NCBI GenBank assembly: GCA_001824295.1
Contig: MHWY01000005.1
Coordinates: forward strand, 304-61,347
Origin: Candidatus Zambryskibacteria bacterium RIFOXYD1_FULL_40_13
GTDB lineage: Bacteria; Patescibacteriota; Minisyncoccia; Phycocordibacterales; DATDWN01
DNA: 61,044 nucleotides
Reading direction: 5' to 3'
Shown here: in pieces, positions 3,013 to 34,926 of the stretch
Layout: every line of letters starts with the position of its first letter
Position numbering within the stretch: position 1 is the first letter of the stretch
Program-made: the position numbers and the translations under genes
Notes under the pieces: model-generated
What the model was told of the DNA's origin: nothing
The model's input: the letters and a program-made list of their open reading frames with translations, nothing else
Databases searched by the model: none

Positions 3013-4071
3013 ATGCTGGAGTTGTCTAAATACAACAGGATAAGATTTCATAAGGAAGGAGTTCAGACTAAGTTTATTTTAAAAGCAAGGAAAACTTTAA
3101 ATTTAACTGAGCTGGAGTTATCAAGGAAATTAAAATTGTGTCGACGGACGATTACTGATTGGACAAAAGAAAGAGTTACTATATCTCAAATTGGTGCAAA
3201 TAAAATATCTAGCTTGGCAAAGATATCAATTCCCAAAGGTTACGACATTATTGACTGGAAGGAACACTGGCGAAAGGCGGGGAGGGTGGGGGCTATGACT
3301 AGATTTGTAAGATGTGGAAGGGTTTGTATAGATGAAAAATACCGAAAAATGAAGTGGAATGAATGGTGGAGGAATGTCGGGCAGTACAAAAAGCCACCTC
3401 CAGGTTTTCAGTCTTTGGTAAAGATAAAGATACCACGAAAGAGTAAGTTGCTCGCTGAGTTTATTGGCATTTTGCTTGGAGATGGAAATATATCCCCATA
3501 TTATATTAGTATCACCTTGTCTTCAAAGGAAAAAGAATACATTAAATATATTTGTAAAATTATTGAGAAACTTTTTAGAGTTGTACCAAAGATATTTAAA
3601 CATAAAGAAAAAAAAGCTGTAACTATTGTTGTTAATCGAAAACAACTCGTCGACTTTTGTCAGGAAGTTGGGTTTAAAAAGGGAAACAAGGTGTCCAACC
3701 AGGTTGATATTCCCCAATGGATTAAAAAAAGTAAAATGTATAGTTATGAATGTATCAGGGGCTTGATTGATACTGATGGATGTTTTTTCTTCCATAACTA
3801 TATTGTTAATGGAAAAAAATATTTTTATTTCAAAATAGCTTTTACAAGTGCGTCTATTCCTTTAAGGTTGTCAGTAAAAAAAATTTTGATAAATTCAGGT
3901 TTTGGTGTAAGAATGAGTAAGGCGGGGAAGGGAAAAGGTGGAGATGTTCGTATTGATGGTGGTTTTTATGTGAAAAAATATATAAAAGAAATAGGCTCAC
4001 ACAACAAAAAACACCTAGATAAAATCGAAAAATGGAGGGTTGCTCCGAATGGTAAGGTAGCGGTTTGCTAA
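3013..4071 (+). CDS. LAGLIDADG-family homing endonuclease (free-standing, two-motif)
   Basis: Motifs FIGILLGDGNI and IRGLIDTDGCFFF. ATG at 3013 lies 6 nt after TATAAT (3001-3006); the ORF track begins at TTG 2998. The last 38 nt overlap tRNA-Ser(GCU). Confidence 0.85.
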   Translation: MLELSKYNRIRFHKEGVQTKFILKARKTLNLTELELSRKLKLCRRTITDWTKERVTISQIGANKISSLAKISIPKGYDIIDWKEHWRKAGRVGAMTRFVRCGRVCIDEKYRKMKWNEWWRNVGQYKKPPPGFQSLVKIKIPRKSKLLAEFIGILLGDGNISPYYISITLSSKEKEYIKYICKIIEKLFRVVPKIFKHKEKKAVTIVVNRKQLVDFCQEVGFKKGNKVSNQVDIPQWIKKSKMYSYECIRGLIDTDGCFFFHNYIVNGKKYFYFKIAFTSASIPLRLSVKKILINSGFGVRMSKAGKGKGGDVRIDGGFYVKKYIKEIGSHNKKHLDKIEKWRVAPNGKVAVC

Positions 4072-4120
4072 ACCGTGAGGGTCTTAAAACCCTCTATGGG
4101 TTCGACTCCCATACCCTCCG
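4034..4120 (+). tRNA. tRNA-Ser(GCU)
   Basis: GGAGGGT TG CTCCGAATGGTAAGGT A GCGGT TTGCTAA ACCGT GAGGGTCTTAAAACCCTCTA TGGGT TCGACTC CCATA CCCTCC G. Long variable arm; CCA not encoded. Confidence 0.85.
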
Positions 4121-4158
4121 CAACAAAGACTCAAGAAAGGAGGGTTTTAATTGTGTAT

Positions 4159-4857: not shown

Positions 4858-5988
4858 ATGGCAAACTTTCTTTCAAACCTTGTTGGAGACTTATTTAGTA
4901 AGAAAAACGGAAGTGTACTAGGGATAGACATAGGTTCTTCCTCTATAAAAATAGTCCAGCTAAGCCGTAAAAACGGCCACGCAGTCCTTGATACATACGG
5001 TGAGCTGGCCCTCGGTCCTTACGCTGGCAAAAGTGTGGGTGAAGCCACAAACCTTCCTCCAGAGAAAATTGTAGAAGCAATAGCAGACATGCTGAAGGAA
5101 AAAGAGGTTAACATTACTACTCGCGCCTGCGGAGTAGCCATTCCTTTCTCATCAAGCTTGATGACACCAATAGAGATGCCAATGGTTTCGCCAAAACAGC
5201 TTGAAACCATGATTCCAGTGGAGGCTAGGAAATATATTCCAGTTCCTATTTCAGAGGTTGCTCTGGATTGGTACATCATTCCCAAAGACAAGAATCCTGA
5301 CTCAGAGCAGTTTGTTGACCAGACTGAAAAAGAAAAGTTGCAGAAGATTGAAGTGCTTATTGTGGCTATTCACAACGATACGCTTATTCGTTACAAAGAC
5401 ATCGTTACAAAGAACGCACTAGAAGCTAGTTTCTTTGAGATTGAAATCTTCAGTACCATGCGTTCGGTATTGGAACAAGAACTTACGCCAGCTCTTATTG
5501 TTGACATGGGAGCAACAAGTACAAAGCTATACATTGTGGAGAGGGGAATATTGCGTTCATCACACATGGTTAACCGGGGCTCACAGAGTATAACCGACGA
5601 GCTTTCAAAGTCTTTGGGCATTTCGCTGACAGACGCCGAGAATATAAAACGCGACAAGGGACTTTTGGGAGAAGTGAAGGGGGTAAAAATTAAAGATGTG
5701 GTTACTCTAACCCTTAATTATATTTTTTCCGAATCAAACAGAGTTGTTTTGGCTTATCAGAAGAAATATAACAAGAATGTAAGCAAGGTGATTTTGGTTG
5801 GTGGTGGTAGTGCCTTGAAGGGGGTAGTAGATGTGGCAAAAAATAATTTTCAAACAGAGGTTGTGGCTGGAGACCCATTTTCAAAAGTAGTTGCTCCTGC
5901 ATTTCTTGAGAAAGTATTACATGAAACTGGTCCGGAATTTGCTGTTGCTATCGGTGTTGCACTCCGCCGTCTCCAAGAGCTGGATTAG
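4858..5988 (+). CDS. pilM: Type IV pilus assembly protein PilM (actin-like ATPase fold)
   Basis: 376 aa with N-terminal LGIDIGSSSIKIVQL. It is the first gene of the pilus cluster. Confidence 0.8.
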   Translation: MANFLSNLVGDLFSKKNGSVLGIDIGSSSIKIVQLSRKNGHAVLDTYGELALGPYAGKSVGEATNLPPEKIVEAIADMLKEKEVNITTRACGVAIPFSSSLMTPIEMPMVSPKQLETMIPVEARKYIPVPISEVALDWYIIPKDKNPDSEQFVDQTEKEKLQKIEVLIVAIHNDTLIRYKDIVTKNALEASFFEIEIFSTMRSVLEQELTPALIVDMGATSTKLYIVERGILRSSHMVNRGSQSITDELSKSLGISLTDAENIKRDKGLLGEVKGVKIKDVVTLTLNYIFSESNRVVLAYQKKYNKNVSKVILVGGGSALKGVVDVAKNNFQTEVVAGDPFSKVVAPAFLEKVLHETGPEFAVAIGVALRRLQELD

Positions 5989-20686: not shown

Positions 20687-20715
20687 TTGATTGAATGGTT
20701 TGTTTGTGATACAAT
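20687..20715 (+). promoter_or_regulatory. Putative sigma-70 promoter of the tRNA cluster
   Basis: TTGATT, 17 nt spacer, TACAAT (preceded by TGA), about 28 nt upstream of the first tRNA. Confidence 0.5.
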
Positions 20716-20742: not shown

Positions 20743-20813
20743 AGCGGGGTAGAGAAGCAGTATCTCGGTAGGCTCATAACCTGCAGACCCACGTGCAAAT
20801 CGTGGCCCCGCAA
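20743..20813 (+). tRNA. tRNA(CAU), initiator-like (acceptor AGCGGGG/CCCCGCA with a 1:72 A-A mismatch)
   Basis: AGCGGGG TA GAGA AGCAGTA TCTC G GTAGG CTCATAA CCTGC AGAC CCACG TGCAAAT CGTGG CCCCGCA A. The T-loop is TGC (not TTC) and the D-loop lacks GG. Confidence 0.65.
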
Positions 20814-20848
20814 CAAGAAGAAAAGCTCTCGAAAGAGAGTTTTTCTGT

Positions 20849-21039: not shown

Positions 21040-21081
21040 GTAGTTTGAGTTTTTGGGTTTTTCTGTTATATTTCCTATATT

Positions 21082-21155
21082 GTCGGCGTAGCTCAGGTAG
21101 TTAGAGCGTGGGACTCATAAGCCCAAGGTCCCCCGTGCAATTCGGGGCGCCGACA
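21082..21155 (+). tRNA. tRNA(CAU), elongator Met or Ile2-type
   Basis: GTCGGCG TA GCTC AGGTAGTTA GAGC G TGGGA CTCATAA GCCCA AGGTC CCCCG TGCAATT CGGGG CGCCGAC A. Confidence 0.8.
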
Positions 21156-21266
21156 CAAAATTAATATTGACTCTTTGAAATTATACGATTTTATGTATAA
21201 TAGGTTGGGTACATCAAAACTATTCCTTAAGAGGAAGAAGGATGTGTTTGAAAGGTACAAAAAGAT

Positions 21267-21550
21267 GCGGTCGTAGCTCAATTTGGTTAGAGCGCGTCCC
21301 TGTAGAATACTGCAGCTTTCTGTCGAAATGGCAGATTGAAACTCTTTGGGATATCGGTGAAGGCTAAATCCTAAGTGCAAACGAAGGACATGCGAATACC
21401 GAGGGAACTCATCTTTTGATGAGAGCACCGTAGAGACTAGATACCAGAGCACCTAACGGGAAACCTATGGTGAAGATATAGTCCACGCCTTTATGAAAAT
21501 ATTGGATAAGTGCACGGACGAGGTTGTGGGTTCAAGTCCCATCGATCGCG
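21267..21550 (+). tRNA. tRNA-Asp(GUC) interrupted by a group I intron in the anticodon loop
   Basis: Exons: GCGGTCG TA GCTC AATTTGGTTA GAGC G CGTCC CTGT | CAC GGACG AGGTT GTGGG TTCAAGT CCCAT CGATCGC G. The spliced loop is CTGTCAC and the discriminator is G. Confidence 0.75.
21304..21512 (+). ncRNA. Group I self-splicing intron (IC3-like, about 209 nt, no ORF)
   Basis: P1 hairpin CTGT|AG-AATA-CTGCAG has a U.G pair at the 5' splice site. R element CCGTAGAGACTAGA and S element GAAGATATAGTCC are present (P7 GACTA/TAGTC). AATCCTAAGTGC and ACCTAACGGGAAACCTATGG resemble the Azoarcus tRNA intron. The intron ends in G. Confidence 0.85.
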
Positions 21551-21555
21551 CATCG

Positions 21556-21587
21556 AAAAATAGAGCCAATAATACGGCTCTATTTTT
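21556..21587 (+). terminator. Rho-independent terminator after the tRNA cluster
   Basis: AAAAATAGAGCC-aataatac-GGCTCTATTTTT. Confidence 0.75.
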
Positions 21588-30577: not shown

Positions 30578-30652
30578 GCCGGGATAATTCAGTGGTGGAA
30601 TGCCGTCTTGGTAAGACGGATGTCGAGAGTCCGATTCTCTCTCCCGGCTCCA
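30578..30652 (+). tRNA. tRNA-Thr(GGU), CCA encoded
   Basis: GCCGGGA TA ATTC AGTGGTG GAAT G CCGTC TTGGTAA GACGG ATGTC GAGAG TCCGATT CTCTC TCCCGGC T CCA. Confidence 0.85.
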
Positions 30653-34250: not shown

Positions 34251-34502
34251 ATGAGTTGTCACGTTTATGTATTAAAAAGCAATAGACATGATAAATCTTA
34301 TGTTGGGTCAACAAATGATCTTGAAAGAAGATTATCAGAACACAATAACGGCAAATCAGCTTATACTTCAAAATATAAACCATGGAGTATAATTTATACT
34401 GAAGAGTTTAGTGTACTAAAGGAAGCTCGGGAAAGAGAGAGGTATTTAAAGGGTCGTAGCGGGAGAAGGTTTTTGAAAAAGATTTTTGATAATAAAAAAT
34501 GA
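34251..34502 (+). CDS. GIY-YIG (URI-domain) nuclease family protein, 83 aa
   Basis: HVYVL...SYVGST...RLSEHN...RERYLK. It is a paralog of the ORF at 31693-31968. The start choice (34251) is uncertain. Confidence 0.8.
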   Translation: MSCHVYVLKSNRHDKSYVGSTNDLERRLSEHNNGKSAYTSKYKPWSIIYTEEFSVLKEARERERYLKGRSGRRFLKKIFDNKK

Positions 34503-34516
34503 CTTCTGCACAAAGC

Positions 34517-34587
34517 TGGGAGATCGTCTAATGGTAGGACGCATCCCTCTGAAGGATGCTATCTTGGTTCGAGTCCAAGTCTCCCAG
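34517..34587 (+). tRNA. tRNA-Gln(CUG)
   Basis: TGGGAGA TC GTCT AATGGTA GGAC G CATCC CTCTGAA GGATG CTAT CTTGG TTCGAGT CCAAG TCTCCCA G. U1-A72 is typical of tRNA-Gln. Confidence 0.85.
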
Positions 34588-34609
34588 CTTTGTGCAGAAG
34601 TCTGAATAA

Positions 34610-34710
34610 TCGTCTAATGGCCCGTCTCGACTTGGCAAGCTCGCGAGCCGAGGCGGATAGGACACATCCCTCTGGAGGATGTTATCTTGGTTCGAGTCCA
34701 AGTCTCGCAG
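34610..34710 (+). pseudogene. tRNA-Gln-like body (positions 8-73) lacking its 5' acceptor strand, with a 37-nt insert in the D-loop
   Basis: TC GTCT AATGG[CCCGTCTCGACTTGGCAAGCTCGCGAGCCGAGGCGGA]TA GGAC A CATCC CTCTGGA GGATG TTAT CTTGG TTCGAGT CCAAG TCTCGCA G. Confidence 0.5.
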
Positions 34711-34740
34711 CTAGGAGTTTTTTGTTAAAAAAACGACGCC

Positions 34741-34869
34741 GCAAGAGACTTGGACTCGAACCAGGGAAGGGGTCGGGAAACGGGAGTTTCCCGTGTAGGA
34801 AGGCAGTGAGCGAAGCGAACGTTGGAAAACCGTCGGTTTCCAAGGAGTGAGAGATCCAAGTCTCCCAGC
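34741..34869 (+). ncRNA. Conserved structured element, copy X2 (unknown class; paralog at 20849-21039)
   Basis: Core blocks at 34764-34783 and 34787-34846 match X1. Hairpins CGGGAAAC-GGGA-GTTTCCCG and TTGGAAAACC-GTC-GGTTTCCAA. Closing helix GAGACTTGGA/TCCAAGTCTC. Confidence 0.4.
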
Positions 34870-34926
34870 CCTGCTCAGAATTAACCTTCTAAACCCTCGT
34901 GAGCTGAAGTTTGGTATAATGTAAAC

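Follow-up and report, generated by a model that had tools for sequence, protein, structure and literature searches.

The locus described here raises the question of what separates the two halves of a tRNA-Asp(GUC) gene, and whether such a gene can still give rise to a tRNA. The gene occupies positions 21267-21550 (plus strand) of the window, by which we mean the whole 61,044-nucleotide stretch of DNA that was analysed, and is split by a 209-nt insert at 21304-21512, between U35 and C36 of the anticodon loop. Group I introns of bacterial tRNA genes are classically known from four settings, namely tRNA-Leu(UAA), tRNA-fMet, tRNA-Ile(CAU) and tRNA-Arg(CCU). As developed below, the region is very probably a Patescibacteria (CPR) tRNA-Asp(GUC) gene that is interrupted at U35/C36 by a group I ribozyme, which is small and IC3-like and contains no ORF.

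Exons and splice boundaries of the split tRNA-Asp gene

The two exons of the gene are the following.

21267-21303, plus strand: tRNA-Asp 5' exon, with the acceptor strand, the D arm, the 5' strand of the anticodon stem (CGTCC) and the loop bases C32 U33 G34 U35 (ARAGORN -i, the spliced product and the sequence)
21513-21550, plus strand: tRNA-Asp 3' exon, with C36 A37 C38, the 3' strand of the anticodon stem (GGACG), the variable loop, the T arm, the acceptor strand and the discriminator G21550 (ARAGORN -i and the sequence)

Divided into its arms, the 5' exon reads GCGGTCG-TA-GCTC-AATTTGGTTA-GAGC-G-CGTCC-CTGT and the 3' exon CAC-GGACG-AGGTT-GTGGG-TTCAAGT-CCCAT-CGATCGC-G. Joined, they form a canonical cloverleaf of 75 nt whose anticodon loop is CUGUCAC (GUC, Asp) and whose discriminator is G; CCA is not encoded in the gene, the discriminator being followed directly by CAT. 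As judged from its sequence, the spliced tRNA has G73, G34 U35 C36, C38 and G10, the established tRNA-Asp identity set. The splice boundaries are unique: because the junction bases differ (T/G and A/C), the cut cannot slide, and only one position restores CUGUCAC. When introns are allowed, ARAGORN places a tRNA-Asp(gtc) gene at 21267-21551 and gives it an intron of 209 nt with identical boundaries, and it calls the sequence spliced in silico a standard 76-nt tRNA-Asp. An earlier note on this DNA had placed the insert at 21304-21512, after CGTCC-CTGT and before CAC-GGACG, and had proposed that splicing would restore the loop CTGTCAC (GUC) in a tRNA with discriminator G73; the placement agrees with the sequence to the base, and ARAGORN's call of the spliced product bears out the proposal. 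The gene is not reported in the window by ARAGORN in its default mode (no intron option) and is missed by the Rfam tRNA model, and a search of the 61-kb window finds no second tRNA-Asp.

Architecture of the insert

The insert can be resolved into the helices and conserved elements of a group I intron, listed here in order.

21304-21512, plus strand: group I intron, 209 nt, without an ORF, omega-G being G21512 (RF00028, nhmmer profile, covariation)
21300-21315, plus strand: P1 hairpin CUGUAG / AAUA / CUGCAG, strands 21300-21305 and 21310-21315 (splice-site U·G invariant in 30 of 30 homologues; the adjacent pair covaries among AU, CG and GC)
21319-21335, plus strand: P2 hairpin UCUGUC / GAAAU / GGCAGA, with a GAAA-type L2 (all five scored pairs covary; MFE fold)
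21344-21349, plus strand: 5' strand of P3, CUUUGG, paired with 21444-21449 (compensatory change in five of six pairs, 90.6% of cells paired)
21354-21402, plus strand: P4-P5-P5a domain (RNAalifold, covariation, MFE fold)
21354-21359 and 21397-21402, plus strand: P4, UCGGUG / UACCGA
21363-21364 and 21392-21393, plus strand: P5, GC / GC
21369-21372 and 21385-21388, plus strand: P5a, UCCU / AGGA
21403-21429, plus strand: P6/P6a, with P6 formed by GG (21403-21404) and CC (21428-21429) (RNAalifold, covariation, MFE fold)
21408-21413 and 21418-21423, plus strand: P6a, CUCAUC / UUUU / GAUGAG
21430-21441, plus strand: R element, GTAGAGACTAGA = GUAGAGACUAGAUACC, containing the 5' strand of P7 (GACUA, 21435-21439)
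21444-21449, plus strand: 3' strand of P3, CCAGAG, which follows the R element, P3 and P7 thus interleaving as a pseudoknot
21450-21472, plus strand: P8 hairpin CACC ... GG-GAAA-CC ... GGUG (three of four pairs covary)
21473-21484, plus strand: S element, AAGATATAGTCC = AAGAUAUAGUCC, containing the 3' strand of P7 (UAGUC, 21479-21483)
21488-21505, plus strand: P9 hairpin CCUUUAU / GAAA / AUAUUGG, with a GAAA tetraloop (all six scored pairs covary in the family)

In P1, the last four bases of the exon pair with the internal guide GCAG, and U21303·G21312 supplies the wobble pair of the 5' splice site. The registers of P2 and P6a were taken straight from the sequence of the window, and the MFE fold agrees with them. 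All helices of the window intron are intact except for two U·U mismatches, both of which lie in P9 and are common to three homologues (L100, L107 and L144). The last base of the intron is omega-G, G21512, immediately 5' of the 3' splice site. For P10, no convincing pairing of the 3' exon with the guide sequence could be drawn, the C+1 of the 3' exon facing U21311. The catalytic core P3-P8, the P3/P7 pseudoknot and the guanosine-binding helix P7 are all placed. As a group I intron the insert is complete: it has P1 with its U·G, P2 through P9, a GAAA loop in both L2 and L9, and G as its last base. The P1 that had been proposed earlier (CTGT|AG-AATA-CTGCAG, with U.G at the 5' splice site) is present at 21300-21315, and the R and S elements, P7 (GACTA/TAGTC) and terminal G that had been proposed with it are likewise all present.

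Covariance model, profile and compensatory change

The Rfam group I model RF00028 matches the window once, at 21294-21505, over its full length (model positions 1-253), with 37.0 bits and E-values of 7.6e-6 for the whole window and 5.3e-8 for the local region. This score lies below the gathering cutoff of 50 bits, the match emerging only with E-value thresholds, and an Rfam scan of the window at gathering thresholds reports no intron. Of the check with this model that the earlier note had proposed, the full-length alignment at E 7.6e-6 supports the intron and the score falls short of the curated cutoff. We regard the sub-threshold score as a limit of that cutoff that does not contradict the fold. 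The preprint of Williams (2020) states that none of the 12 Rfam seeds used was bacterial, and gives a working cutoff of 18-20 bits (bioRxiv 10.1101/2020.01.27.920355). An nhmmer profile, for which 29 tRNA-Asp introns were used and the window intron was excluded, has its sole match in the 61 kb at 21298-21517, with E 1.2e-55 and 183 bits. Matches of this strength lie far outside what chance would give.

The structural alignment comprised 30 Asp introns, and from it RNAalifold recovers P1, P2, P4, P5, P6/P6a, P7, P8 and P9, as well as the initial pairs of the anticodon stem; P3 was added to this structure as a pseudoknot before pairs were counted. Across the 30 homologues, 94.0% of cells in P1-P9, including the P3/P7 pseudoknot, form standard pairs, as against 36-43% in controls with the 3' strands displaced by one to three columns, and 30 of the 49 pairs show changes on both sides. 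Such compensatory pairs occur in each of the variable helices (P2, P3, P4, P6a, P8 and P9), and none of 500 shuffles matched any observed pairing measure. Because the family evolves by compensatory change, it is under selection for the fold. The invariance of P7 among surveyed introns is an ascertainment effect, fixed by the search pattern, and does not count as independent evidence; similarly, omega-G is found in all homologues by design of the parser. The splice sites proposed earlier also held in the covariance fold, with U·G at the 5' site, omega-G at the 3' end and the anticodon loop CUGUCAC restored. Taken with RF00028, ARAGORN and the profile, covariation fully supports the earlier note's structural reading of a group I intron at 35/36 in the anticodon loop of tRNA-Asp(GUC).

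Related introns in tRNA-Asp, tRNA-Tyr and tRNA-Asn

A survey of public genomes, with one genome per species, used the pattern CTGT..GTAGAGACTA..AKATAGTCC and gave at least 119 matches; the parser kept those with CUGU, an intron ending in G and anticodon-stem strands that complement each other, and ARAGORN was run on the spliced products as a check. At least 29 other distinct tRNA-Asp(GUC) genes carry an intron at the identical site. The same site is occupied in at least 14 tRNA-Tyr(GUA) and at least 13 tRNA-Asn(GUU) genes, the latter count rising to at least 36 with a relaxed stem rule and the inclusion of mislabelled cases that were inspected. Since ARAGORN -i shifts the position of the intron, the host labels that it assigns to the survey loci are unreliable: it gave Thr, Ser, His or Asp for several hosts that are Asn or Tyr, and the tRNA-His hosts that it suggested proved to be tRNA-Asn.

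The Asp introns fall into two subfamilies. The larger one (25 of 30), to which the window intron belongs, has a P1 of the form AG..UGCAG, GGGAUAUCGGUGAAGGCUA, and the S element AAGAUAUAGUCC, while the smaller one (L087, L115, L152, L164 and L177) has P1 C..GGCAG, J3/4-P4 CUAAUUCGGGG and the S element AUAAGAUAGUCC. The window intron is 83-85% identical to L100 and L123. For 45 of the 56 introns (Asp, Tyr and Asn) placed in a distance tree, the nearest neighbour sits in the same host tRNA; among the few exceptions is L088_Tyr, which falls among the Asp introns. Two MAGs carry Asp and Asn introns at the same loop position (L115/L195 in CAYSAY01 and L170/L168 in JAGWIS01; 70-76% identical), and recent jumps within these genomes were rejected, as the paired introns are not mutual closest relatives. 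Because the distance tree lacks bootstrap support, the fit of the introns to old, mostly host-tRNA-specific lineages with rare switches is only suggestive. Additionally, because a search of a phage collection gave only two short core-motif matches, no phage connection emerges.

Several further observations were made among the surveyed loci. Three intron-bearing tRNA-Asp genes (L005 at 5617-5895, L111 and L137) have a short D loop and an aberrant T loop (GTGGG-GTCAGCA-CCCAT, no TTC motif), and ARAGORN does not call them even with introns allowed. Near gatA in CPR relatives, ARAGORN -i, with its unreliable labels, lists candidate intron-containing tRNAs in L005 (4460-4739, minus strand, Leu-CAA, 205 nt), L006 (8189-8510, minus strand, Met, 250 nt), L011 (8822-9075, Thr-GGU, 178 nt), L013 (9393-9684, Ser-UGA, 220 nt) and L016 (8976-9309, Leu-CAG, 262 nt); the window's own tRNA-Thr(GGU), at 30578, is without an intron. 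Finally, L087, L115, L164 and others bear TPA_asm labels such as 'uncultured Gammaproteobacteria' or 'uncultured Candidatus Saccharibacteria' that look generic or doubtful, and carry CPR-type introns in tRNA-Asp, tRNA-Asn or tRNA-Tyr; host taxonomy taken from such titles is untrustworthy unless checked.

Genomic context and orthology with intron-less genes

The genes for LigA, GatC and GatA neighbour the tRNA-Asp gene, and the closest relatives of GatA (60-68% identity) are found in Patescibacteria (CPR) MAGs of Paceibacteria, Nomurabacteria and related groups. The order GatCA - ORF - tRNA-Met - tRNA-Met - tRNA-Asp is common to the window and these relatives, which marks the window gene as an ordinary chromosomal tRNA-Asp gene. 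The syntenic tRNA-Asp has no intron in five relatives (L001, L008, L009, L012 and L023), while in L005 this site is occupied by a homologous intron of 206 nt. The comparison of tRNA-Asp genes in related genomes that had been suggested at the outset thus shows that, in an orthologous and otherwise ordinary gene, some lineages have the intron and others do not. A search of a metagenome collection with the spliced 28-mer, that is, the 28-nt anticodon arm, gave matches in 34 metagenome contigs, all intron-less tRNA-Asp genes. None has the identical tRNA or identical flanks, the closest agreeing with the window exons at 72 of 75 positions; because the tRNA differs elsewhere and the flanks differ, these genes belong to relatives and do not represent a second copy.

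Downstream of the gene lies one further structured element.

21556-21587, plus strand: 12-bp hairpin AAAAAUAGAGCC/GGCUCUAUUUUU, six bases past the discriminator (-16 kcal/mol, z -4.2)

This hairpin is likely a terminator or 3'-processing signal; a simple terminator scan did not call it. A promoter scan called none directly upstream of tRNA-Asp, where a perfect TATAAT (21196-21201) has no -35 element at the usual distance. Two tRNA(CAU) genes (20743-20814 and 21082-21156), each of which may encode an initiator, elongator or Ile2 tRNA, lie directly upstream of tRNA-Asp, are preceded by promoter-like sites (20687-20715 and 21045-21072), and are kept as a pair in relatives.

The window has other tRNA features as well. 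A tRNA-Gln(CUG) gene (34517-34588, in the region 34493-34891) sits within a perfect 23-nt inverted repeat (34501-34523 / 34580-34602). The 3' two-thirds of this tRNA recur as a direct copy at 34658-34712, which is 93% identical and scores 24.9 bits with the Rfam tRNA model, below the cutoff, and further pieces comprise a 3'-end fragment at 34855-34880 and an inverted T-arm copy at 34745-34763; these copies could be integration-site scars or tRNA pseudogenes. A tRNA-Ser gene on the minus strand (2872-2961), with CCA encoded, has the anticodon loop UUACUAA and hence the anticodon ACU with A34, and shares its codon box with tRNA-Ser(GCU) at 4034-4121. Among bacterial tRNAs, A34 is unusual except in tRNA-Arg(ACG).

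Comparison with known tRNA introns

The intron type is already known, albeit from one preprint, and the window case is good annotation rather than a discovery. That preprint describes a scan of 80,413 bacterial genomes with RF00028 and ARAGORN that raised the number of bacterial tRNA intron settings from 4 to 21, and reports interrupted tRNA genes as frequent in metagenomic assemblies from unnamed phyla; its seed alignment, gpI.sto, includes Wba81.Asp.4Ug (tRNA-Asp, after CUGU), Mba143.Tyr.4Ug and Pam37.Asn.4Ug, all at the same loop position (Williams 2020, bioRxiv 10.1101/2020.01.27.920355). The earlier note's implication that tRNA-Asp was a new setting is therefore not supported, in view of Asp.4Ug in this seed and of the further tRNA-Asp cases of our survey. 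In our literature search we found no later paper on 4Ug introns and no splicing experiment.

Wba81.Asp.4Ug resembles the window intron in its host (tRNA-Asp GUC), its insertion (CUGU/...g/CAC), U-1, omega-G, its length of ~200 nt and its want of an ORF; however, the two are only 61% identical, and the published seed resembles the smaller Asp subfamily. The Tyr.4Ug and Asn.4Ug introns of CPR bacteria share the insertion after CUGU, the guide GCAG and the same core, and differ in host tRNA; Mba143.Tyr.4Ug is the published seed most similar to the window intron (72%). By alignment, the compact P1, P2, P3-P9 with P5a and the core motifs of the window intron match those of the Azoarcus tRNA-Ile(CAU) IC3 intron (Aol6.Ile2.5Ug), which suggests an IC3-like architecture. 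The Azoarcus intron is the structural model system and is known to self-splice. It has ~205 nt, the same P1-P9 architecture and GAAA loops in L2 and L9; the R element (GUAGAGACUAGA) is identical, and P8 (CACCUAA..GAAAC.CUAUGGUG) and S are near-identical. In contrast, it is inserted after position 36 and not 35, in another tRNA of another phylum, is 62% identical, and is G+C-rich whereas the window intron is A+U-rich. The cyanobacterial and plastid tRNA-Leu(UAA) intron (Leu.3Ug) likewise sits in the anticodon loop, falls into the same broad subgroup of group I introns and has U-1 and omega-G, but it is inserted between 34 and 35, is 60% identical and has a longer P9 region.

Proposed splicing pathway and competing explanations

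The data show the structure of the gene, a ribozyme fold that is complete and conserved, the homology of the intron to many others in tRNA-Asp, and the orthology of the gene to the intron-less tRNA-Asp of relatives; a splicing pathway can be proposed. The precursor would fold such that exon CUGU pairs with the intron guide GCAG in P1, and an exogenous guanosine docked in the P7 pocket would attack after U35, which lies in the U·G wobble. The terminal G21512 would then take the place of that guanosine in the P7 pocket, and the freed 3'-OH of U35 could attack the bond before C36, joining the exons, restoring CUGUCAC and releasing the intron. End-processing and CCA addition would complete the tRNA. 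We infer that splicing proper takes place, with or without the help of proteins.

Two competing explanations accept the intron and question its activity or its autonomy. The gene might be a dead copy whose intron no longer splices, an intron-less tRNA-Asp elsewhere in the genome doing the work; only 61 kb of the genome are in view, and tRNA-Asp genes that lack the intron but match the 28-nt anticodon arm exactly do occur in metagenomes. However, those genes differ in tRNA (72/75 at best) and in flanks and so come from other organisms, while the window gene holds the conserved syntenic tRNA-Asp position and retains canonical exons and all ribozyme helices, in a family whose compensatory changes signal selection for the fold. 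We judge a dead copy quite improbable. Marginally less improbable, though still unlikely, is that the intron is functional but non-autonomous, depending in vivo on a protein or on the folded body of the tRNA for efficient splicing and perhaps splicing poorly in a simple test with GTP and Mg2+. The want of a clear P10, the two U·U mismatches in P9 and the A+U-richness relative to Azoarcus would fit such dependence; against it stand the complete IC3 core and both tetraloops, which are kept, and the behaviour of the IC3 introns in tRNA genes of Azoarcus and cyanobacteria, which are its nearest characterised relatives and are reported to self-splice in vitro (Reinhold-Hurek & Shub 1992; Xu et al. 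1990).

A third explanation denies the intron altogether, invoking either chimeric assembly of the contig or an insertion of another kind whose likeness to the group I consensus is due to chance. The Rfam score below the gathering threshold could be cited in its favour, but at least 29 independent assemblies, including that of the syntenic relative L005, have homologous introns at exactly this site; together with a profile E of 1e-55 and covariation in every variable helix, they effectively refute it, and we assign it a negligible likelihood. A tRNA-Asp(GUC) gene interrupted by a group I ribozyme thus remains the reading that we prefer, and this gene is presumably the only tRNA-Asp gene of the cell, as judged from the 61 kb that are visible of a roughly 1-Mb-class genome.

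Implications for CPR genomes

The window case leaves existing knowledge of group I introns unchanged. It does supply a well-documented example, with coordinates, helix map, covariation and syntenic presence and absence, of the expansion, little known so far, that group I introns have undergone in CPR tRNA genes, and its 209-nt, A+U-rich, IC3-like predicted ribozyme is a small candidate for splicing tests. On a wider and more tentative reading, which we hold to be plausible if somewhat short of probable, a single ORF-less intron family may occupy U35/N36 across Patescibacteria in three CUGU-loop tRNAs (Asp, Asn and Tyr, not His), the four-base guide GCAG fitting all three, with occasional switches of host tRNA such as that suggested by the Tyr intron nested among Asp introns; the window gene would be the sole tRNA-Asp gene, and splicing by the ribozyme would be essential for translation in a minimal-genome bacterium.

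The case also bears on how such genomes are annotated. Because default ARAGORN, the Rfam tRNA model and RF00028 at its cutoff all miss the gene, a default annotation would list this genome as lacking tRNA-Asp, and the tRNAscan-SE 2.0 paper describes introns of this kind as a cause of 'missing' tRNAs in annotation. In CPR genomes, 'missing tRNAs' can be mistaken for reduced decoding capacity.
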